Source: a plasmid
Direction: 5' to 3' (one strand)
DNA: 64,000 bases
Sequence record: NZ_CP092738.1
In this document: piece by piece, positions 8,358 to 64,000 of the stretch
Numbering within the stretch: the first letter of the stretch is position 1
Layout: every line of letters starts with the position of its first letter
Program-made: the position numbers and the translations under genes
The notes under the pieces: generated by a model
What the model was told of the DNA's origin: nothing
The model's database searches: none
The model's input: the letters and a program-made list of their open reading frames with translations, nothing else

Positions 8358-9215
8358 TTATAACATCCCGTGGTCTTTTAGATCCTTTTTACTCAAACCA
8401 GTGATTTCTAAGATCATATCCACATCCATACCTTTCTGAAGCATCTTACGAGCGGATTTTAATTTTTCCTTCCCAATCCCTTGTAGTTCACCCGCTTCAA
8501 AACGAGCAGCCAAGTCATACGCATAGTCGCGGTCTGATTTTAACTTTGCTTCTAACTCATTGCGTTTCTGAGGATCATTTGAATACTGTTCTAAAATTGT
8601 AAATGCCTTACTTAAATCTGGAGTTTTATCTACTAAAATTCTCATTTCTTCTTCCTCCAACTCAGACGTATGTTTTAACACATACAACCAGATTTCTAAA
8701 TTATTCCTTAATTCCCTTACGTCTCTTTTGACAAACTTGCACAACTCTAAAAAATGAATTTCTACGTCGTCTGTTAAAATGATGTCAGGATTAGACTCTT
8801 CTCTAAATTTAAACTTACTATGAAAATTCTCCGAAGGAATTAAATCAAAGTCAACTATATTTATCTGATACACTGGCTTCAAATCGGAATACATAGAACC
8901 TCGGTTCAACTGATCCCGAATTAGTCCTGAAAGATAATACAAACTTCTCTTCACGAAAGAGCTCTGATGAGCTACTTGAATTTCTACATGAAATATTTTT
9001 CCATCCTCATCTTGAGCACGTATATCTAAATACGAACGTTTGTCATTCGGAGAAGAGCCTACAAGTTCCGGATTCAGTATTTTAATGTTTCGAATCGTAT
9101 GTTCCCCATCCGTAAATAACACACTGTTTAATATTGAAATCAGTAGATCCGGTTCTTTGACGAACAGGATCTTAAACATCAAATCATTGGTTAAAGGAAA
9201 AAAGTTTTTAGACAT
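8358..9215 (-). CDS. Rpn-family recombination-promoting nuclease/putative transposase (PD-(D/E)XK, PDDEXK_2-like)
   Basis: N-terminal ...[12 protein letters not shown]... pattern and family length. Nearly identical to 14075..14980 over the first ~240 aa. Confidence 0.75.
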
Positions 9216-12620
<3,405 letters not shown>

Positions 12621-14074: not shown

Positions 14075-14980
14075 TTATAGTATCCCGTGGTCTTTTAGAT
14101 CCTTTTTACTCAAACCAGTGATTCGAAGGATTACATCTAAAGCCATACCTTCTTCCAACATCTTACGAGCGGATTTTAACTTTTCTTTCTCTGCACCCTT
14201 TTCAATCCCTTTCTTGATACCTTTCTCAATACCCTTCTGAATACCTTGTAGTTCACCCGCTTCAAAACGAGCTGCTAAGTCATACGCATAGTCGCGGTCT
14301 GATTTTAACTTTGCTTCTAACTCATTGCGTTTCTGAGGATCATTTGAATACTGTTCTAAAATTGTAAATGCCTTACTTAAATCTGGAGTTTTATCTACTA
14401 AAATTCTCATTTCTTCTTCCTCTAACTCGGACGTATGTTTTAACACATACAACCAGATCTCTAAATTATTCCTTAATTCCCTTACGTCTCTTTTGACAAA
14501 CTTGCACAACTCTAAAAAATGAATCTCTACGTCGTCTGTTAAAATGATGTCAGGATTAGATTCTTCTCTAAATTTAAACTTACTATGAAAATTCTCCGAA
14601 GGAATTAAGTCAAAGTCAACTATATTTATCTGATACACTGGCTTCAAATCGGAATACATAGAACCTCGGTTCAACTGATCCCGAATTAGTCCTGAAAGAT
14701 AATACAAACTTCTCTTCACGAAAGAACTTTGATGAGCTACTTGAATTTCTACATGAAATATTTTTCCATCCTCATCTTGAGCACGTATATCTAAATATGA
14801 ACGTTTGTCATTCGGAGAAGAGCCTACAAGTTCCGGATTCAGTATTTTAATGTTTCGAATCGTATGTTCCCCATCCGTAAATAACACACTGTTTAATATT
14901 GAAATCAGTAGATCCGGTTCTTTGACGAACAAGATCTTAAACATCAAATCATTGGTTAAAGGAAAAAAGTTTTTAGACAT
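14075..14980 (-). CDS. Rpn-family nuclease/putative transposase paralog with a C-terminal KGIEKG-repeat expansion
   Basis: Identical to 8358..9215 up to ...ELQGI, then GIQKGIEKGIKKGIEKGAEKE is inserted. This resembles the EEKGIEKGIQQG segment of E. coli RpnA. Confidence 0.75.
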   Translation of the reverse strand: MSKNFFPLTNDLMFKILFVKEPDLLISILNSVLFTDGEHTIRNIKILNPELVGSSPNDKRSYLDIRAQDEDGKIFHVEIQVAHQSSFVKRSLYYLSGLIRDQLNRGSMYSDLKPVYQINIVDFDLIPSENFHSKFKFREESNPDIILTDDVEIHFLELCKFVKRDVRELRNNLEIWLYVLKHTSELEEEEMRILVDKTPDLSKAFTILEQYSNDPQKRNELEAKLKSDRDYAYDLAARFEAGELQGIQKGIEKGIKKGIEKGAEKEKLKSARKMLEEGMALDVILRITGLSKKDLKDHGIL

Positions 14981-17270
<2,290 letters not shown>

Positions 17271-17291: not shown

Positions 17292-18182
<891 letters not shown>

Positions 18183-18415: not shown

Positions 18416-19816
18416 TCATGCAGCACTCCCCTTTCTATTTTCAATTGTAGTCTTTTTTACCTCTGAGTTATTTACAAGACCCGGATACACTTCGTTTACA
18501 AATTTTTCAAAGAGTATCTTTTTAGTTCCTTCGTATTTGAAAGGATCTGAGTTTTGTTCGTAATATTCTAATTGAGATTTAAGCAACTTACTCTTACCCC
18601 AACCTAAAAAACATTTATACGGATCTAAGTTGTTTATCTCTTCTATGGGTGTTTCTTGGATCGTCTTACTCTCGTTATATTTGGATTTATTTTGTGGTTC
18701 ATTTCGTTTTGTGTTCTTTTCAGTAGGTTTTACTTTTCTTTCAAATAACCTAGACCAAAACTTAGTAATCGATTCAGGACTCAAAGACTGCTCATACCAA
18801 AATTTGGGATCTTGTTTTCTCAGTTGGATGAGTGTTTGTATCTTACTTTCGATCAAGTTCCAATCTCCTTTGGATATTTCATACAGTGAACTTAATGCTT
18901 TTAGTTCTGAGTCTGGTTGCCCCATTTCACTTCCATGTTCTCTGAAATAATAGTCTTGGAATTTTATAAGCCAAGAATCAGGAAATTGAAATCGTGATAA
19001 CGGTTTAGGTTTGTTTAAATTTTGTTTTTGTTCTTCCAGGTGCGTTTTTGCAGGCGGGCCGTACTCTCTAGTAGTATTTAGTATTTGTTTAAAGAGTACT
19101 TGTTTTGATAGTCCTTGGTATATAGTACTTGATAGGGGTTGATTTTCCCCACCTTGAAAATCAAGTTGTGGCTTCTCTGCTTGGGGTGAACCAAGAGCCT
19201 GATTTTTTTCTCTCTTAAATTTTATTTCTAATTCTTCTTCTATGCGTGCTTGTGGGGGCTGGTCATACTCTCTAGTTGTATTTTGTATTTGTGAAGAGAA
19301 TACTTGTTTTGATAGTCTTTGGTATATAGTATTTGATAGGGGTTGATTTTCCAGACCTGGATTTACCGTGACTGGGTTTTCCGGTTGTGGAAAATCCAAG
19401 ACCGGATTTTCTTTTATGTTAGATTCTTTGACTTCTTTTAAAAAGAGTTCCTTTTGTTTTTCTAAATTCTTATTTTGAGTTGTTTTTATTTTGTATTGAA
19501 CTTCCGGCTTTTGAGACTCTTCAAAAAAATACCATCCCGAATTAAATCTACCAGTTACTGGATCTTTTCCTTTTCGAAATTCTGCATAGCCAAAGGTAAC
19601 TAGTTCTTTAAACCCAGATGCAATACTTGAATCTTTGTCGCTTTTGAATTTAGACATCGTTTTTACCGACATTCGCCAGTGGTCTGGGTAACGGAGGGCA
19701 AGAAGTAGGATTGCTGTCGCTTTCATACTTAAACGAACATCATCGATAAAGTTATTTTTTACGATTGTAAAGTTTCGGTCTTTTTGTACCCGAAAGACTC
19801 TTTGAGTATCATTCAT
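18416..19816 (-). CDS. hypothetical HTH/replication-initiator-like protein with a 33-aa internal tandem repeat
   Basis: 466-aa ORF. The N-terminus (FTIVKNNFIDD...LSMKATAILLLALRYPD) resembles phage/plasmid replication-organiser HTH domains. The direct repeat ENQPLS(N/S)TIYQ(R/G)LSKQV...NTTREY occurs twice. The matching ~100-bp nucleotide repeats lie near 19060-19150 and 19250-19340. Confidence 0.4.
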   Translation of the reverse strand: MNDTQRVFRVQKDRNFTIVKNNFIDDVRLSMKATAILLLALRYPDHWRMSVKTMSKFKSDKDSSIASGFKELVTFGYAEFRKGKDPVTGRFNSGWYFFEESQKPEVQYKIKTTQNKNLEKQKELFLKEVKESNIKENPVLDFPQPENPVTVNPGLENQPLSNTIYQRLSKQVFSSQIQNTTREYDQPPQARIEEELEIKFKREKNQALGSPQAEKPQLDFQGGENQPLSSTIYQGLSKQVLFKQILNTTREYGPPAKTHLEEQKQNLNKPKPLSRFQFPDSWLIKFQDYYFREHGSEMGQPDSELKALSSLYEISKGDWNLIESKIQTLIQLRKQDPKFWYEQSLSPESITKFWSRLFERKVKPTEKNTKRNEPQNKSKYNESKTIQETPIEEINNLDPYKCFLGWGKSKLLKSQLEYYEQNSDPFKYEGTKKILFEKFVNEVYPGLVNNSEVKKTTIENRKGSAA

Positions 19817-29462: not shown

Positions 29463-36348
<6,886 letters not shown>

Positions 36349-36365
<17 letters not shown>

Positions 36366-40406: not shown

Positions 40407-43331
<2,925 letters not shown>

Positions 43332-53683: not shown

Positions 53684-54124
53684 ATGAAAAATAGGGGAAA
53701 GATAAATCCTAAAAAGATCCCCAAAACAAAGAATTTATATATAACGCCGATCAAAGCGGGATTTCCTTCACCCGCTGACGACTATTTAGAAAAAGAATTA
53801 GATATAATATCTCTCGTTATCCAAAATCCAAACTCAACGTTTTTCGGAAGGGTAAAAGGGGATTCGATGGTAGAAGAGGGGATCAAAGATCAAGACATTA
53901 TCGTAATTGATAAATCCATTAAACCACAAAGCGGCAATACTGTCGTATGTGCATTGGACGGAGTAATAGTAGTTAAAACCCTAAAAATAAAAGGTAAAAA
54001 AATAATATTAGAATCTTCGAATGCAAAATATGAACCTATAGAGATAAAAAAAGAAAACGAGTTTGAAATCTGGGGAACAGTAACGTGGACGATTCATAAA
54101 GTTAGAAATGTTCGTGCTCGTTGA
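53684..54124 (+). CDS. umuD: UmuD-like S24 peptidase (LexA-type)
   Basis: ...AGFPSPADDY...GDSMVEEGI... (Ser nucleophile motif) plus a later Lys. Overlaps umuC. Confidence 0.75.
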   Translation: MKNRGKINPKKIPKTKNLYITPIKAGFPSPADDYLEKELDIISLVIQNPNSTFFGRVKGDSMVEEGIKDQDIIVIDKSIKPQSGNTVVCALDGVIVVKTLKIKGKKIILESSNAKYEPIEIKKENEFEIWGTVTWTIHKVRNVRAR

Positions 54125-55361
54125 TTGTAACTCATTTTACTGTTCTTGCGAAAGACTGTTTCGACCTGACCTTAAAAACAAACCGGTTGTAGTGCTCAGT
54201 AATAACGACGGATGTGTAATTTCGAGGAGTAAGGAGGCAAAAGAATTAGGTATCAAAATGGGAGAACCGGCATTCAAAAGAAAGGAGTATTTCGAGGAAA
54301 ATAAGATAGAAGTATTTTCTTCGAATTACGCACTTTATGGAGATATATCAAGAAGAGTCATGAAAGAATTAGAAAGATACTCGGACCAAATTGAGATCTA
54401 TTCTATTGACGAGGCTTTTTTGAAACTATCTCAAGACAGAAAAGAAGAAATATCTAAAATAGCCAAAAAAATCAAAAAAGAGATAAATAGAAATATAGGA
54501 ATCCCTGTCAGTATAGGGATAGGAAAAACAAAATCACTTGCAAAAATCGCAAGCCAACTTGCTAAAAAAAGTAAAGATAACATATATATAATCCTAGAAG
54601 AAGAAAGGGAAGAAGCACTAAAAAAAGTAGAAATCAAAGACGTATGGGGAATTGGAAGAAGTTATGAAAAGTTACTAAAAAAGGTCAATGTACTAACGGC
54701 TTTTGACTACACACAACTAAACCCTTACTGGATCAGGAAACATTTAACCGTAGTAGGGTTAAGACTACAATACGAGCTCAAAGGATACCAAGCCTTAGAT
54801 CTAGAAAAGGATATAAAAAATAAAAAAACAATTTCAATCGCTAGATCCTTTTCACAAACTCAAACCGAGTTAGAAATTCTAGAATCAATCGTAGCGACAT
54901 TTGCCAGTAGGGCCGCTTATAAACTCAGAAAACAAAACGGATATACAAGTTTATTAAGAATTTTTATTCATACAAATCCATTTGCAAACAAAGAAGAAAC
55001 ATACTCCAAACATATAGAAATAAAACTTCCCGTTCCTTCACAAAGCACCCCTGAAATCGTACACTACTGTCTACAAGGACTTAGACAGATTTATAAACCA
55101 AAACTAAAATACAAAAAAGCAGGGGTTATTTTAGACAAAATAACAATCGAAGAAAATTTTCAGCCGGACCTATTCGATTCTGTAAATAGAGAAAAAGAAA
55201 AAAGACTCAATGAGAGTATAGACAAAATCAATGAAAAATTCCAAAATGAAAAAGTTAAATTCGCAGTCACAAATAATAAGAACTCATGGGCCTTAAAACA
55301 AGAAAGGTTATCACCTCGATATACAACACGATGGGAGGATATAATCTATGTGTTATCATAA
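54108..55361 (+). CDS. umuC: Y-family translesion DNA polymerase (UmuC-like)
   Basis: MFVLVDCNSFYCSCERLFRPDLKNKPVVVLSNNDGCVISRS... Canonical Y-family N-terminus. 417 aa. Confidence 0.85.
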   Translation: MFVLVDCNSFYCSCERLFRPDLKNKPVVVLSNNDGCVISRSKEAKELGIKMGEPAFKRKEYFEENKIEVFSSNYALYGDISRRVMKELERYSDQIEIYSIDEAFLKLSQDRKEEISKIAKKIKKEINRNIGIPVSIGIGKTKSLAKIASQLAKKSKDNIYIILEEEREEALKKVEIKDVWGIGRSYEKLLKKVNVLTAFDYTQLNPYWIRKHLTVVGLRLQYELKGYQALDLEKDIKNKKTISIARSFSQTQTELEILESIVATFASRAAYKLRKQNGYTSLLRIFIHTNPFANKEETYSKHIEIKLPVPSQSTPEIVHYCLQGLRQIYKPKLKYKKAGVILDKITIEENFQPDLFDSVNREKEKRLNESIDKINEKFQNEKVKFAVTNNKNSWALKQERLSPRYTTRWEDIIYVLS

Positions 55362-56061
55362 TTCACTGACCGAAGACTCTCAAAAATTGGCAAATCGATA
55401 TAACGTAAAATTTACGATTCAAGGTTATAGACCGATATACCACGAAAACGGATTTAACCATAACCCGCGTCCGGTTATAACGAACCAAAATCCAAACGAA
55501 TTCCAATGTTATCAGTGGGGACTAATCCCTTACTGGACAAAAAACTTAGAGGACGCTTTAAAATATCAAAATAACAATTTAAACGTAAAAACTGAGACAG
55601 TAACAGAGAAAAAATCGTTTCAAGAAGCGATTTTAAAACAAAGATGTCTTGTTCCCTCGACAGGATTTTTTGAATATCAGGAAATCAGAAAGAAAAAATA
55701 CCCCTACCGAATTTTCTTAAAAAAAGAAGAAGTGTTCTCGTTAGCTGGAATTTTTGATATATGGACCGATTCACAAACCCAAAAAACATATTATACTTTT
55801 ACTATATTAACGACAGAAGCAAACCCGCTTATGAGGCAAATTCATAATAGCAAATATAGGATGCCTTTAATACTACCAAGAGGCAAAGAATTTAATTGGA
55901 TTGATCCAGACTTAGACCAAATCAAAGAAATAGAAAAATTGTTTGAGGTATATCCGGATACAGAAATGGATGCGTATACGGTTAAACTGGAGAATGATTC
56001 TTATAAACCGAACCGATATAAATACTATTATCCGGATATAGAACAAGAACTTTTATTTTAA
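55348..56061 (+). CDS. SOS-response-associated peptidase (SRAP/YedK-like, DUF159)
   Basis: N-terminal MC(Y)H catalytic Cys2. Length and position directly after umuC. Confidence 0.65.
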   Translation: MCYHNSLTEDSQKLANRYNVKFTIQGYRPIYHENGFNHNPRPVITNQNPNEFQCYQWGLIPYWTKNLEDALKYQNNNLNVKTETVTEKKSFQEAILKQRCLVPSTGFFEYQEIRKKKYPYRIFLKKEEVFSLAGIFDIWTDSQTQKTYYTFTILTTEANPLMRQIHNSKYRMPLILPRGKEFNWIDPDLDQIKEIEKLFEVYPDTEMDAYTVKLENDSYKPNRYKYYYPDIEQELLF

Positions 56062-58231: not shown

Positions 58232-58726
58232 TTATAAATTTACAAAAGAAATTTCTTTTGCTAGTTTATTGAATATAACTTGAAAAGAATATTTTTCATT
58301 TTTTGGATTGTGATAAAGAAATTCGGAACTTCCGAATTTTATTTCTGAAAACTCTTTTCCACGATCAGCGCATAACTGTTTCCAGATTATTTCCTTTTTT
58401 TCTTCCGAAAAAAATCTTCCTAATCTAATACTTCCGATTCCTGATTGGTATTGACCATTTACACTAATTTTAGTAGAAAAATAATTGTATTGTTCGTTTT
58501 TTGCGTCGTATTTTTTATTTTGGTACTTATTTGTAATTTCATTTACCTCTTGTTCTGTTGGTCCATCTTTCCAAGTAACAGAACAATCACTAAATTTATC
58601 TTTACGAACATTAAATTTAACCCCAGGAAAAGCTTTTTGAAGATCTAAGCGAATTAATTTATTTGTCTCCATCGAACTCAAATAAGGTAAATTATTTTCA
58701 AGGTTTTGTGAAATTATTCTTATCAT
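58232..58726 (-). CDS. hypothetical protein
   Basis: 164-aa ORF. Confidence 0.4.
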   Translation of the reverse strand: MIRIISQNLENNLPYLSSMETNKLIRLDLQKAFPGVKFNVRKDKFSDCSVTWKDGPTEQEVNEITNKYQNKKYDAKNEQYNYFSTKISVNGQYQSGIGSIRLGRFFSEEKKEIIWKQLCADRGKEFSEIKFGSSEFLYHNPKNEKYSFQVIFNKLAKEISFVNL

Positions 58727-58972
58727 TGTAAACTCCTTAGTATAAATTTACTAATATAAATAAAGTATAACATTATGGTTTTCATATGACAACCATAATG
58801 TTTGTTTTTTTTAAATTATTTAAGCAAACTTACTTTCTTTCAATCTATTATTAAATTATGTTTTTCAAATTAAATTATAAAAATTTCTCAAAAATTATTA
58901 AAAAAATCCTTGCAAATTTGCGAGGATTTTTTATACTGAAATAACAAACGGTTTGAAACCGGGGAGGGATAA

Positions 58973-59476
58973 ATGATTCAATTTACTCAAAGAGGTCCAA
59001 AGGTAAACGGTGTACAATATAAAGCTACTTATCAAAAATACAAAGATATGGAAGGAAAAGAATACATCCAGATCTACAGTCGAAATTATGGTAGCTTTTA
59101 TTTCCCGGAGGAAATTCGCGCACAGTTTCAAGTTGAAAACCGGACAGATTCAATGACTGACTATTTTGAGATGGATCGTTTCAACGTGTGCCAGGAGCAC
59201 GAATTATTCCCAAAAGTGAAAGCAACGTTGGAAGCGATTAATGCCTCGTATAACAAAAGGAAGGAAAAGAAAAAATCAGAACGGCATTTACCTAAAGTTT
59301 CTCGATGTAAGAGCCCTAAGCCTTTTCATCATGAATATGTTTCTAAAATTAGATTCCCTGAGTTAGGTAAAATCGTTTATCTTTCTTGTGTTCTTAAAAA
59401 ACAGGAAGCAATAAAAGCGGCGCAAGCTGTTTTAATGCTCACTGAAAACGCAAATTTTAAAATAGTTGTATGCTAA
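58973..59476 (+). CDS. hypothetical protein
   Basis: 167-aa ORF with a plausible RBS (ggggagggataa). Confidence 0.4.
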   Translation: MIQFTQRGPKVNGVQYKATYQKYKDMEGKEYIQIYSRNYGSFYFPEEIRAQFQVENRTDSMTDYFEMDRFNVCQEHELFPKVKATLEAINASYNKRKEKKKSERHLPKVSRCKSPKPFHHEYVSKIRFPELGKIVYLSCVLKKQEAIKAAQAVLMLTENANFKIVVC

Positions 59477-59607
59477 GATGATAATAACTGAAGATACAAC
59501 AGAAATTTACAAAAGAATATCGATCCCGGAAATAGTAAGTCACCGGGATCAGATCTTCAGGAACTTTTCGATTCTATTTCTAAAGTTTATGATATGATCG
59601 TTTTAAG

Positions 59608-60096
59608 TTGAATCGTATTCGCGGAATAGATATTGATTTTTATTTTCCGAGTCAAGGTAAGCGAACTCATTTTAATCCAAACGAAACGAACGACCTTAAA
59701 GAAAAGATAAGAAGTCAAATTGATCATAACATTTGGAAATTACTTGCGGAAGAAACTGGTTTATACGACTTGATGGATGAGCAGGCTAAGGATAATTTTA
59801 ATTGTGAGCTTGAGAAGAACCCGCCGCATGTTACGAACGGGAATATTCTTGCAACTTTTGAACGTCTTGAATCTGAAAAAGAAAATATTTTCGAAAGAGG
59901 TCTAATAAACGTATTTAAAAACCTCGATTGTAAATATGTTTCGAATGACTCATTCAAAGTTACCAAGAAAATCATAATTTCAAATTATCGTGGATTTTCG
60001 AGCAAGGATAGTGTTCGTGATATTGAGCGAATCAATAAAATAATAGCGAGAAGTGCCGGGTATCGAGTTCCAGAAAAAAATAATAATTGCATTTAA
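59608..60096 (+). CDS. hypothetical protein
   Basis: 162-aa ORF. Confidence 0.35.
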   Translation: MNRIRGIDIDFYFPSQGKRTHFNPNETNDLKEKIRSQIDHNIWKLLAEETGLYDLMDEQAKDNFNCELEKNPPHVTNGNILATFERLESEKENIFERGLINVFKNLDCKYVSNDSFKVTKKIIISNYRGFSSKDSVRDIERINKIIARSAGYRVPEKNNNCI

Positions 60097-60461: not shown

Positions 60462-61175
60462 AGTGGAAGAAATGATGGAGTAATTTACATTAGAAGTACT
60501 GAAAGAATTAAATTCTTTAATACAATAACCATAAAATCAAATTCCTGAAGTTGACTATTCTCGGCTCAAAGAGATCCCATGATATAGAGCTAGAAGGTGT
60601 TGCGGATTACAGAGAGAAGTTGTCAAAGGTGAAATAACAATTGGATACCGATCGGAGGACTGTTAAATGAAAGATGTCGAAATTTTAAAGGAAGTTCAGC
60701 ATTCGAAATTGGTAAAGTATGAATGGGTACGCTTAATGAACAAATGTTCATTTTTGATACATAATCCACATTATCGGAAGTTGATTGTTGTATCATTTAA
60801 AAAAAAATATACTTGAAACACTGAACGTTTCCTCACCTAAAGATCTACACGGAACTGCTTTTGAGAATCATCTATCGGTCTTATTGAACTGCACTACAGC
60901 TCTATTTTCTAATCTTTTGGGATTGATAGATTCCAGGGCTTTATGATATTCGTATATTCTGCTATTATTAGGTAGTTATACGAAATTCGATTATTTGCAG
61001 TTATGCGACATGCTAAAAATTATAGGGGTTAAGTGATGCCAATTACAATACAAAGTGTACATGATTTACGAAATTATTTCAAAGGGGTAGTAACGCGTTC
61101 TAAGCACCATGCCCCTAAAGTTGATCAAATTATTTACTCATTGGTCGGACATGTCATTTTAAAACCGGGTTTCAC

Positions 61176-61296
61176 CACATTTGCTTTGTCACTTCGGTTC
61201 GCGGGACGGCGCTAAGGCGCCTCGAACCTTGTGCCAATTCTTCCGCGCGTTTAGACGCGCTCCAGAACCGCAAACGTCGAGGAGACTCTTTCGTTA
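61176..61296. repeat. GC-rich ~120-bp structured repeat, copy 1
   Basis: cacatttgctttgtcacttcggttcgcgggacggcgctaaggcgcc...gcgcgtttagacgcgc... contains hairpins GGCGC-TAAG-GCGCC and GCGCGT-TTAG-ACGCGC. About 60% GC, against an AT-rich background. Confidence 0.8.
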
Positions 61297-61345
61297 TACG
61301 CAATCGCAAAAGAAAATATTAAATAAAAGAGACTGTAAAAAATTT

Positions 61346-62310
61346 ATGAAAAGTTATGTTTTAAGAATCAATTCCTCTTTAAGTGAAACATTGATTTCTA
61401 ATAAGAATGAAAATCGTATATCAATTGGCTGGTGTGACGCGAAAGAGTTACTCAATGCTGAACTTAATTGGTATGGTTTTCGAGAAGTATTACATCGAGT
61501 TTATTATGCAGACCGAAAAACTTATCGTGCCGCAGGAAACGCAGGAGCAAGTCTTTGGAATTTTATTCGAAACATGAAAAAAGATGACTATGTTTTGATT
61601 CCTAGCATAATTTTGATTTTTATATTGCTAAAATTATTTCCGATGACCTAGACTATATAGAAGAAAAAATTTCTGAAGAAACCGCTTTTTCACGAAAAGC
61701 TATCTGGTTAAATAATGGACAACCAATCAAAAGAAATCAAGTACGGTCAAAAATCATATCTAGACTAAAAGTCTACCAGACTTGTGTAGATTGTTCCGAT
61801 TTAAATAATGAAATTTTAGAATTATTAGAAGACATTGCATCCAACCGTACTTCAAATTTTGAAGATGACTTACGTAAAGACGTAACTAAAACAATTCTGA
61901 ATGCTCTACATACTGGAAAAATTGAAAATTTTGGCTTTGAAAGGCTATTAAAAAATCTATTCATTAAATTAGGATCACGGGAAACCAAAATCGTTCCCAG
62001 ATCCAAAGATAAAGGCTCTGATTTAATAGTTGAATTTTACATTTTTGATATAGTTCCTGTTCAAATATCCGTACAAGCAAAGCATTGGAACGAATCGAAT
62101 CCAGTTAAAAGAGAGGAAATTGAGCAATTAAAAACAGGAATCGAAAGCGATGGGACTAATTATGGCTTATTTATTACTAGTGGAATTTACACGCAAGAAG
62201 CAATGGATTATGTAGAACAACTATACACTGAAGGAATTATCATACATTTGATTGATGGGCTTCAGCTATCTAGTTTATTATTCAAAGAATCTGTTTTCGA
62301 TCTTACATAA
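61346..62310 (+). pseudogene. Mrr-cat-type restriction endonuclease gene with a frameshift near 61600-61650
   Basis: The N-terminal part lies in ORF 61181..61651 (from MKSYVL). The rest lies in frame 0 (61606..62310: ...RSKDKGSDLIVEF...ISVQAKHWNE...GLFITSGIYTQEA..IHLIDG) and has no ATG. Confidence 0.5.
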
Positions 62311-62387
62311 GCTTTGCGACAGCGTATAACTTCGTCTCCTCGCTGCGTTCGAGATTTGCTCCGCAAACTCTCACTCCAGGCTAAAGC

Positions 62388-62510
62388 CACACTTGCTTTG
62401 TCACTTGGTTCGCGGGACGGCGCTAAGGCGCCTTGAACCTTGTGCCAATTCTTCCGCGCGTTTAGACGCGCTCCAGAACCGCAAACGTCGAGGAGACTCT
62501 TTCGTTAGGC
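62388..62510. repeat. GC-rich structured repeat, copy 2
   Basis: About 95% identical to copy 1. Ends ...cgttaggcgacagtttttaaatat. Confidence 0.8.
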
Positions 62511-62614
62511 GACAGTTTTTAAATATTTTTTTGCAATGAAGATTTTTGAGCTCAATCCCAATCTTTAGTTTCTTTTCAGTTGACAAATTTATACGTAATT
62601 ACATAGTAATTACA

Positions 62615-62863
62615 ATGAAGGCTTCAGTCGTAAAAATAGGCAATTCCAAAGGTATTCGAATTCCCAAGGCAGTCTTAGAAGAATGTCATATTGAAGAAGA
62701 AGTAGATTTACTAATCGATAATAACAAATTAATTATTGTACCTCTAAAATCGAAACCAAGAGAAGGGTGGGAAAAACAATTTAAAACAATGTCATCTAAT
62801 AAAGATGATAAATTATTTATTCCTGATTCAATAGATTTATTAGACAAGGATTGGGAATGGTGA
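62615..62863 (+). CDS. mazE: MazE/AbrB/SpoVT-family antitoxin
   Basis: MKASVVKIGNSKGIRIPKAVLEE (AbrB/MazE swapped-hairpin motif). ATG at 62615 inside track ORF 62546..62863. Confidence 0.7.
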   Translation: MKASVVKIGNSKGIRIPKAVLEECHIEEEVDLLIDNNKLIIVPLKSKPREGWEKQFKTMSSNKDDKLFIPDSIDLLDKDWEW

Positions 62864-63180
62864 TTTCTCAATACGAAGTATATCTAATAAATTTAGATCC
62901 AACGGTTGGACATGAGATAAAAAAATCAAGACCTTGTGCAATAATCTCACCCAATGAAATGAATAAAACGATTGGAACAATTATTATTGCACCAATGACT
63001 ACAAAATCTCGATCATATCCGACAAGAGTTGAATTAACCTTTCAAGGAAAGAAGGGTTGGATTGTGTTAGATCAGATTCGAGCTGTTGATAAAACACGTC
63101 TGGTAAAGAAGTTAGGAAAAATAGATCCCAAAACAGTTAATAAAATGAAACTGGTAATAAAGGAAATGTTGGTTGATTAA
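62851..63180 (+). CDS. mazF: MazF/PemK-family endoribonuclease toxin
   Basis: ...YEVYLINLDPTVGHEIKKSRPCAIISPNEMNK...IIAPMTT... Overlaps the mazE stop. Confidence 0.8.
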   Translation: MGMVISQYEVYLINLDPTVGHEIKKSRPCAIISPNEMNKTIGTIIIAPMTTKSRSYPTRVELTFQGKKGWIVLDQIRAVDKTRLVKKLGKIDPKTVNKMKLVIKEMLVD

Positions 63181-63224
63181 GAATTGATCGATTTTCTAAA
63201 AACCGTCGCCTCACTCCGGCTCCG

Positions 63225-63260
63225 CACATTTGCTTTGTCACTCGGTTCGCGGAACGGCGT
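63225..63260. repeat. GC-rich repeat, copy 3 (left part only). The matching right end is at 63488..63515.
   Basis: cacatttgctttgtcactcggttcgcggaacggcg, and ...cgttggacgacagttttaaatat about 225 bp downstream. Confidence 0.7.
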
Positions 63261-63301
63261 ATCGTATGCTACCAATATAGTTGTAGATTAATTCATCATT
63301 A

Positions 63302-63472
63302 TATGGAAAAATATTCAGATCGGCCAATGGATTTTGCAGATGCTTCTTTAGTAAGTCTTTCTGAAATTTATGAAATAAAAGATATTTTAACTTTAGATAG
63401 TGATTTCCTTTTTTACAAAACAAAAAAAGGCAAAGCTTTAAACATTCTTAATTCCGAGATGATAAAATATTA
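63302..63472 (+). CDS. small ORF (56 aa) with a PIN-domain-like C-terminal fragment
   Basis: Hand translation MEKYSDRPMDFADASLVSLSEIYEIKDILTLDSDFLFYK... Below the track cutoff. Lies between the split halves of repeat copy 3. Confidence 0.25.
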
Positions 63473-63654
63473 AATCAGAGCACGCATAACGCCGTTGGAC
63501 GACAGTTTTAAATATCTTTTTTTTGGCATTGGATCATCACAATGATAAATTTAAATTCATTTTGAAAATAAACTCGCCCATACTTCTAGTAGCTTCGCCG
63601 TTTGGAAGTGTAGCAAAAAAATTCCAATGAAATATATATACTACCAAGATAAAT

Positions 63655-64000
63655 AAATGAAACAAGGCTCCAATTCGATTCCATTTCTTTTTATTTCCTT
63701 CTTGATAAGATCCCATCCAAAGCCCTTATACGGCTAAAAAACGTATTTCCTTATCCTCTCTTAGGGATTCACTCTGACAACGGTTCTGAATTCATTAATG
63801 AATCAATCATTCGATTTTCCGAAAAGTATCATCTAATCTTTACACGTGCCCGTCCTTACAAAAAGAACGATAACCCTCACGTAGAACAAAAAAACTTTTC
63901 AGTTGTTCGAAGAAATACTGGTTATCTCAGATTCGATAAATCAGAACACTTCGAAATTTTAGTAAAACTTTATTCTTTATTAAATCTTTATAATAACTTC
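63655..64000 (+). CDS. rve/DDE transposase fragment running off the window end
   Basis: Hand translation ...PYPLLGIHSDNGSEFINESIIRFSEKYHLIFTRARPYKKNDNPHVEQKNFSVVRR... No start codon inside the window. Confidence 0.45.

Follow-up and report, generated by a model that had tools for sequence, protein, structure and literature searches.

Probable attC-type sites of an integron-like gene-cassette system in pathogenic-clade Leptospira, with a decayed array fragment on an L. interrogans plasmid

The stretch of DNA analysed here (the window; 64,000 nucleotides of sequence record NZ_CP092738.1) belongs to a Leptospira interrogans plasmid of the lcp1/pLiSL type (replicon cluster 216) and carries, between 61.1 and 63.6 kb, three GC-rich elements in the same orientation (61165-61306, 62319-62517 and 63208-63259), together with an extra right end at 63484-63520. 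We think it likely that these repeats serve as attC-type recombination sites for gene cassettes, in an integron-like system of the pathogenic (P1) Leptospira clade. We regard that system as a new form of integron-like platform that falls outside the canonical integrons, because the window lacks an integrase and because the recombinase linked to such arrays elsewhere is Xer-like, without the IntI-specific domain. An earlier note on this DNA had described three co-oriented GC-rich copies of about 120 bp; their number and orientation are borne out by a profile search (nhmmer E-values of 1e-35, 3e-54 and 1e-7) and by the 99% identity of copies 1 and 2 across 101 nt, but the length was underestimated, the full element measuring about 195 nt. 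A 30-nt core, allowing up to 3 mismatches, occurs twice in the window against 0.00 occurrences expected (shuffles gave none). The note had each copy bounding one small gene unit, and each element does follow one (a frameshifted Mrr_cat, a MazE/MazF pair and a PIN fragment); copies 2 and 3 have in common the right end CGTT(A/G)G(G/A)CGACAGTTTT(T)AAATAT, which includes a GTTAGGC (62504-62510) fitting the R' consensus of attC sites.

All features of the array fragment lie on the plus strand. At its left edge an open reading frame (ORF; 61036-61215) is cut off by copy 1, marking the breakpoint between plasmid backbone and array fragment; over the first 33 of 97 profile positions the N-terminus of the ORF weakly resembles VCH_CASS14, a Pfam family of Vibrio cholerae integron-cassette proteins (E 4e-4, which does not reach the curated cutoff). 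Copy 1 (61165-61306) is attC-like and, by the profile (positions 58-193), 5'-truncated, without R'' and L''; no start-arm partner for the sequence to its left is present in the window. Its R'-like GTTATAC lies at 61293-61299, where the crossover would fall between G61293 and T61294. Cassette 1 (61294-62504) then consists of a start arm, TTATACGCAATCGCAAA (61294-61310), a frameshifted restriction-endonuclease pseudogene (Mrr_cat by Pfam; 61346-62310), an end arm, TTTGCGACAGCGTATAAC (62313-62330), and its own attC-like site. That site, copy 2 (62319-62517), is the only full-length one in the window (profile 1-193). It starts with an R''-like GTATAAC (62324-62330), immediately 3' of the Mrr stop codon, and continues with L'' GTCTCCTCG (62334-62342), L' CGAGGAGAC (62489-62497) and the R' box GTTAGGC; R'' to R' measures 187 nt (62324-62510; about 190 in the family), and the L stem encloses several GC-rich hairpins in a multibranched body.

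Cassette 2 (62505-63214) opens with a start arm, TTAGGCGACAGTTTTTAAA, contains mazE (62615-62863) and mazF (62857-63180), and closes with the complementary end arm TCTAAAAACCGTCGCCTCAC (63195-63214). Its attC-like site is the left fragment of copy 3 (63208-63259; profile 50-102): the L'' region is missing from the mazEF site in all L. interrogans copies examined, and in the window a second deletion (63259/63260) cuts the site after profile position 102. There follows the 196-bp 3' remnant of a PIN-toxin cassette (63287-63482; ORF 63303-63473, 56 aa), 89% identical to L008:3970-4165, where the L. alstonii array holds an intact 141-aa PIN cassette. Next comes a collapsed site (63484-63520), in which an R''-like GCATAAC (63484-63490) and an R'-like GTTGGAC (63494-63500) stand 3 nt apart, and 3' of it the start arm of another cassette, TTGGACGACAGTTTTAAATATC, resembling the mazEF arm. 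Copy 3 had been described as conserved ends around a variable middle. This does not hold, because there are two deletion scars: the left fragment of the mazEF site has been joined, through a deletion, to the last 196 bp of a PIN cassette (intact in L. alstonii), and a collapsed site follows. Another candidate for the 225-bp 'insert' of copy 3, the vapC found downstream of mazEF in other L. interrogans strains, was discarded when comparison showed the insert to be a different PIN cassette. At the window edge lies the C-terminal fragment of a DDE (rve) transposase (63689-64000), which either breaks into the array fragment or marks its end.

No tyrosine recombinase was found in the window, either by Pfam on ten ORFs (208-417 aa), by tblastn with the Leptospira recombinase described below, or by a family hidden Markov model run against all six-frame ORFs of at least 60 aa; nor is an attI-like site present there. 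Because its elements are truncated and no recombinase is there, the window locus is an immobile relic, a decayed array fragment comparable to a cluster of attC sites lacking integron-integrases (CALIN); its sites are all damaged, and its cassettes are therefore probably frozen. Most likely the fragment is kept on the plasmid because mazEF would act as an addiction module. The Mrr repeat unit (1211 bp; the cassette plus one element copy) is present in plasmid lcp1, whereas pLiSL24 lacks exactly this one unit.

Outside the window the element is far better preserved. A single exact-pattern scan of 185,579 species genomes gave matches only in pathogenic-clade Leptospira, at 17 loci in 8 species (L. 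ainlahdjerensis, ainazelensis, weilii, interrogans, alstonii, gomenensis, adleri and ellisii), and an nhmmer profile made from copy 2 recovered 100 copies in the 17 loci and the window. Since nearly all of these run the full length of the profile (193 positions), the element is about 195 nt long. It starts with CGnnTAAC (R''-like) and ends with GTTAnnCG (R'-like); the consensus CG(Y/n)(Y/n)TAAC ... GTTA(R)(R)CG agrees with the attC boxes (RYYYAAC for R'', GTTRRRY for R'), with little or no variation in TAAC and GTTA among 70 copies. At every locus all copies lie on a single strand (18 of 18 sequences), spaced about 0.1-1.3 kb apart. A census of the repeat, as the earlier note had advised, thus finds co-oriented arrays of up to 11 copies per 8 kb in other Leptospira and no scattered copies; the element occurs only in arrays. 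Several arrays stop at contig edges, and short-read assemblies are probably broken by the repeat.

Comparison of neighbouring elements shows what the inherited unit is. The element itself has no terminal inverted repeats; its right arm matches instead the left arm of the next element. The 16 nt after GTTA agree with the reverse complement of the 16 nt before the next TAAC at 11.1 of 16 positions (n=73), against 6.3 of 16 when an element is compared with itself (n=79) and 6.5 (standard deviation 1.9) for random pairs; in sequence L001, every one of 8 successive R'/R'' box pairs agrees. Within the window the same pairing is seen between 61293-61310 and 62313-62330 (16 of 18 positions), and between 62504-62527 and 63195-63214, just after mazF. 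To the left of GTTA the sequence covaries with the same element; to the right it belongs to the next cassette, and is complementary to the 3' arm of the cassette that it opens. The same cassette is also found beside different neighbours in different species. As shown by these comparisons, strand exchange maps inside the invariant GTTA; and, because the arms are complementary to the next element and not to their own, the inherited unit is TTA-arm, ORF, arm', element body and G, which is the logic of integron cassettes.

The 83 distinct cassettes have a median length of 789 bp. Wherever a longest ORF of at least 50 aa was scored it lay on the array strand (72 of 72 cassettes), an orientation compatible with a Pc promoter driving promoterless cassettes. 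Toxin-antitoxin toxins (PIN, MazF, HepT/MNT, BrnT, HigB, ParE and Fic) dominate the cargo recognised by Pfam, with defence-type proteins (TIR, AAA_15, HNH and Mrr) and many unknowns besides. Cassettes of about 125 bp (124-128 bp) without an ORF recur, sometimes in tandem (L014:7457-7871, L015, L006, L011/L013), and there is a second recurring short class of about 260 bp.

An ordinary family of repetitive extragenic palindromes (REP) or miniature inverted-repeat transposable elements (MITE), non-autonomous and transposing into intergenic regions by means of a RAYT or transposase encoded elsewhere, had been offered as the alternative to cassette sites. A GC-rich, hairpin-forming, intergenic element in an AT-rich genome with many insertion sequences is what such a family would look like. 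Its members should not, however, be confined to one orientation at each locus, nor form regular arrays leading from a recombinase gene and an attI-like site; they would not have arms that match the next element, nor would they be expected to separate ORFs that are all co-oriented, and in the window there are only three copies in 64 kb, all adjacent. We therefore reject this explanation as very unlikely.

The interpretation as attC-type sites also makes sense of how the element folds. A hand-specified structure, with pair counts taken on 70 full copies, was used alongside folding of each sequence: 91.6% of cells were paired, as against 26-44% with the partner column slid, and the 9-bp L stem and an internal hairpin, H3, both show compensatory changes (0 of 500 shuffles reached the observed covariation score). 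The R and L boxes are separated by an asymmetric unpaired spacer, and in 23-33 of 70 copies the two variable positions of an element's own R box do not pair, as would be expected if the distal bases of R' were part of the next cassette. In 69 of 70 elements it is the bottom strand that folds more stably (mean -40.5 versus -35.4 kcal/mol); for copy 2 the values are -42.8 kcal/mol (z -3.4) for the bottom strand and -38.6 for the top. The check by single-strand folding that the earlier note had put forward thus shows R- and L-type boxes and a covarying L stem, together with a multibranched body in place of a single hairpin. Among the non-Watson-Crick cells, top-strand A.C, equivalent to bottom-strand G.T, outnumbers the reverse by 66 to 20. 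Almost every cassette has, exactly 7 nt past GTTA, a C.A mismatch on the top strand and hence a G.T wobble on the bottom strand (in the window 61304 is paired with 62319), as does a distant lineage whose recombinase is 39% identical; this +7 wobble looks like a recognition mark. Bulges are present in the sites, for which an equivalence to T12''/G20'' could not be established.

A strongly structured element at the 3' end of each gene might, on the other hand, act at the RNA level, as a 3' untranslated-region stabiliser, a terminator or a small RNA of the toxin-antitoxin and defence genes. The sense strand, however, has A.C where the antisense strand has G.T, so that the mRNA would fold less well; Rfam returned no match at E up to 1; and neither the complementarity of arms across a cassette nor the attI site is explained. 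Of the explanations that we considered, an RNA element is the most improbable, and a role of that kind would be compatible with one in DNA recombination.

Three species have a gene for a 344-aa recombinase immediately upstream of the array, in the orientation of the cassettes: L. ellisii (L014), L. ainlahdjerensis (L018) and L. kmetyi (L019). Its chromosomal surroundings are conserved (SSF transporter, patatin, recombinase), and L. interrogans ATCC 43642 (L007) retains it as a pseudogene, broken into fragments. At these four loci the recombinase stop codon is followed, after 70-100 bp, by an attI-like site, AGTTKGR/GTTA with a cassette-specific arm; in L029 the distance is 164 bp. The attI arm agrees with the R'' arm of the first element at 17-19 of 24 positions at all four loci, while attI and the attC-like sites have only GTTA in common at the crossover. 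The integrase and attI site that the earlier note had proposed to look for are thus missing from the window, but arrays of related species have an Xer-like recombinase and an attI-like site in their place. Two GTTTAYACG-like direct repeats stand between the recombinase stop and the attI crossover (L014:5376-5442, L018:11036-11125, L019:11036-11106); they recall the accessory direct-repeat sites of attI1, and might have a similar function.

By its sequence the recombinase can be placed in the Xer/IntI group as an Xer-like member, though it passes no curated family cutoff: XerA_Arch scores 199 bits (cutoff 220), XerD 176, and the integron-integrase model TIGR02249 174.7 (cutoff 265), the last in two stretches. 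Aligned with VchIntIA (2A3V), its residues 232-253 face residues 171-232 of IntI4, so that the IntI-specific (I2) region of about 40 aa is absent, whereas the alignment to archaeal XerA is unbroken. The AlphaFold model (P0001; L014:4344-5375; predicted local distance difference test score, pLDDT, 85) has no helix where I2 would lie, and has an extra N-terminal alpha/beta domain at residues 1-64 (pLDDT >90). This domain is conserved in the family, with W34 and W41 nearly invariant, and may be an arm-type or structure-specific DNA-binding domain. An assignment of the domain as HARP-like, prompted by faint precomputed Pfam flags in some homologues, was considered but not established. Foldseek with the whole model ranked XerA and IntI4 equally, in a search dominated by the recombinase core. 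The catalytic residues R196, K221, H286, R289, H312 and Y321 are invariant across the family, and orthologues at 66-100% identity came, among the matches listed, from P1-clade species only, with none from L. interrogans.

These findings bear on two further explanations. The first is that the arrays are the remnant (CALIN) of a canonical integron, served by a genuine IntI that Leptospira genomes would encode at some other place, while the neighbouring Xer-like gene would be a bystander; in its favour, the boxes conform to RYYYAAC/GTTRRRY and the cassettes follow the same logic as those of integrons. A bystander would not be expected to stand, in four species and at one conserved chromosomal locus, always in the same place with respect to attI and the first cassette, nor to keep its catalytic residues invariant; its distant homologues in other spirochaetes and bacteria also precede arrays, each with its own repeat family, and sites of 187-195 nt are outside the usual attC size range. 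We therefore consider a canonical remnant quite improbable; the case against it rests on the array loci, whole Leptospira genomes being unsearched for IntI.

The second keeps the same cassettes and supposes a double-stranded, Xer-type two-strand exchange at a short GTTA core, with the hairpins serving termination or the binding of accessory proteins. Because I2 is missing this mechanism has to be weighed: the I2 helix is regarded as the innovation that permits single-strand recombination (PMC7790495), and the enzyme that lacks it is the one that aligns unbroken to XerA. The four bases common to the attI and attC-like sites are, however, too little for an overlap of 6-8 bp; the cassette-specific arms stay complementary over about 20 nt, which matters only if they pair; the mismatch bias favours pairing of the bottom strand over that of the top; and the +7 wobble has been kept across recombinases only 39% identical. 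Double-strand exchange is, we believe, unlikely.

We propose instead that attC-type sites are recombined as folded single strands. The complete form, seen in L. ellisii, L. ainlahdjerensis and L. kmetyi, comprises the recombinase gene, the attI-like site and a co-oriented array of cassettes, each usually with one ORF or a toxin-antitoxin pair followed by a structured site of about 195 nt. The recombinase, Xer-like, without the I2 insertion of IntI and with an extra N-terminal alpha/beta domain of about 65 aa, would cut the folded bottom strand of the site, in which a long R stem with its G.T wobble 7 nt past GTTA would be followed by an asymmetric loop, the 9-bp L stem and the multibranched body. 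Cassettes could then leave as circles (attC x attC) and insert at attI, as in integrons.

Several points weigh against this proposal. All of the evidence is comparative, and no recombination event has been observed. The window is without a recombinase and its three sites are truncated, so that activity cannot be demonstrated there; and homologous recombination between the 122-bp near-identical repeats would explain the presence or absence of the Mrr unit equally well. The recombinase lacks the I2 region, without which, on current models, folded single strands could not be recombined (PMC7790495). The counts behind the strand bias were taken on a few columns of related sequences, and are not independent events; and RNAalifold on a MAFFT alignment gave a partial consensus of 19 pairs, because the middle columns were out of register.

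Relatives of the system are not limited to P1-clade Leptospira. In all, 3093 homologues of the recombinase were counted. Five genomes outside the clade, with homologues 35-45% identical to it, were looked at more closely: Leptospira sp. GIMC2001, Treponema primitia ZAS-2, a Spirochaetales metagenome-assembled genome, one further genome and a Gracilibacter-like contig. In all five the homologue is followed by co-oriented small ORFs, separated by a repeat family of the genome's own that ends in ...CGTTA plus a variable arm. In GIMC2001 (recombinase 39% identical) the repeat family is different, yet the arms are again complementary at all 5 of the 5 elements compared, attI among them, with an A-versus-G difference at the same +7 position. 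In another lineage (L031 and L032) a conserved GC-rich hairpin, GACGCCCGGACCTCCGGCCGACGGGCG, stands after GTTA at the start of cassettes, and also after attI (examples in L032 are 11112-11175, 16676-16739 and 18853-18916). Directly after the homologous recombinase gene of L033 lie a second tyrosine recombinase and an IS91-type Y2 transposase (L033:11399-13403), with a group II intron reverse transcriptase further along the array.

We tentatively suggest, putting the chances at a little under even, that these are members of an unrecognised family of integron-like platforms, having an I2-less Xer-like recombinase with an N-terminal domain, long sites that fold as single strands, and a +7 wobble that marks strand and register. 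The family may extend over Leptospira (including sp. GIMC2001), T. primitia, the Spirochaetales metagenome-assembled genome and some other bacteria. If this is true, the family is either the missing intermediate between Xer and IntI, or an independent origin of cassette capture showing that I2 is not required. Arrays of at least ten sites with the full integron logic, attI included, beside an I2-less enzyme offer a natural test of the I2 model, and their existence suggests that integron surveys miss a class of platforms. For Leptospira, the cassette system would explain the gathering and exchange of toxin-antitoxin and defence genes among environmental, low-virulence P1 species; the L. interrogans relics, with a pseudogenised recombinase and truncated sites; and the presence of array pieces and addiction modules on plasmids of the lcp1/pLiSL type.

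The plasmid backbone around the array fragment has features of its own. Just upstream (58232-60096) are LPD29 and DUF4942 genes, typical of the leading regions of conjugative elements and plasmids, and a few kb upstream is a mutagenic-repair module (53684-56061) made up of a 146-aa ORF (53684-54124), a umuC-like Y-family polymerase gene (54108-55361) and, after it, a gene for an SOS-response-associated peptidase (SRAP). A 2300-aa SpvB/FG-GAP/RHS-repeat protein of polymorphic-toxin or Tc-like architecture is encoded at 29463-36365, and a second RHS-repeat ORF (974 aa) lies at 40407-43331. Three paralogous Rpn/YhgA-like PD-(D/E)XK 'transposase' genes (PDDEXK_2, Transposase_31) are found at 8358-9215, 14075-14980 and 17292-18182; the same family also flanks the mazEF locus in other strains.

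Among known repeats, REPs and bacterial interspersed mosaic elements with RAYT resemble the Leptospira element in being GC-rich, intergenic and hairpin-forming; the Leptospira repeats are nevertheless without RAYT, dispersed copies or inverted pairs, and are tied to a tyrosine recombinase and a cassette structure. In the literature on a Leptospira integron, CALIN or repeat we found no description of this system; coverage was incomplete, and novelty is not proven by this. With CALIN as described by Cury et al. 2016 (PMC4889954) the window locus shares its small cluster of attC-like sites, without a nearby integrase and apparently degraded, but it differs in lying on a plasmid, in having all of its sites truncated and in that the parent system is not a canonical integron. 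The same authors reported only four intermediate recombinases without intI_Cterm near attC, each with fewer than 3 sites, and judged them not to be IntI. It is the I2 insertion that defines an integron integrase, and the main detection tool rejects recombinases without it (PMC4889954). Escudero et al. 2020 described I2 as an innovation for single-strand recombination and noted a 'lack of intermediates' (PMC7790495).

Xer-dependent elements, such as pdif modules and the integrative mobile elements exploiting Xer (IMEX) of CTX-phi type, are similar in being mobile modules served by a Xer-family enzyme without I2, and the case of CTX-phi makes clear that Xer enzymes can act on a folded single-strand substrate (PMC7790495). 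However, pdif modules have double-stranded sites of about 28 bp (two 11-bp arms) in alternating orientation, whereas the Leptospira sites are of about 195 nt, structured and unidirectional; and IMEX elements hijack the host XerCD at dif, where the Leptospira system has a dedicated recombinase and a dedicated attI. Closer in host are the 'inverted integrase' integrons of Treponema denticola type, which likewise combine a spirochaete, a chromosomal array and an integrase co-oriented with the cassettes. These were detected via similarity to T. denticola intI and have attC sites of 63-132 nt; the study, of 2013, saw no sign of integrons in other spirochaetes, T. primitia included (PMC3607928), in contrast to the I2-less homologue and short repeat array that we see in T. 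primitia ZAS-2.

From sedentary chromosomal integrons the Leptospira system differs in its recombinase (without the I2 region of about 35-40 aa, below the TIGR02249 cutoff, and with an extra N-terminal domain), in a recombinase gene co-oriented with the array and having attI 3' of it, and in a pairing that extends about 20 nt past the crossover with a conserved G.T wobble. Its sites are multibranched and of 187-195 nt, whereas attC sites of integrons are single hairpins of roughly 57-141 nt. Thus an IntI with I2 and the size and single hairpin of attC are the features of the canonical integron that it lacks; the R''/R' boxes with their palindrome, the G/TT crossover logic and the recombinase-adjacent attI are those that it has. 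As in sedentary integrons, each cassette ends in a structured site that is homogeneous within the species (RYYYAAC...GTTRRRY), the crossover is in GTT, so that a cassette opens with bases of its own site, the bottom strand seems to be preferred, and the cargo is rich in toxin-antitoxin and defence genes. In overall plan the Leptospira arrays resemble the V. cholerae superintegron, with its V. cholerae repeat (VCR) attC sites: in both, a recombinase at a fixed chromosomal locus and an attI site are accompanied by a long, co-oriented array of small cassettes.

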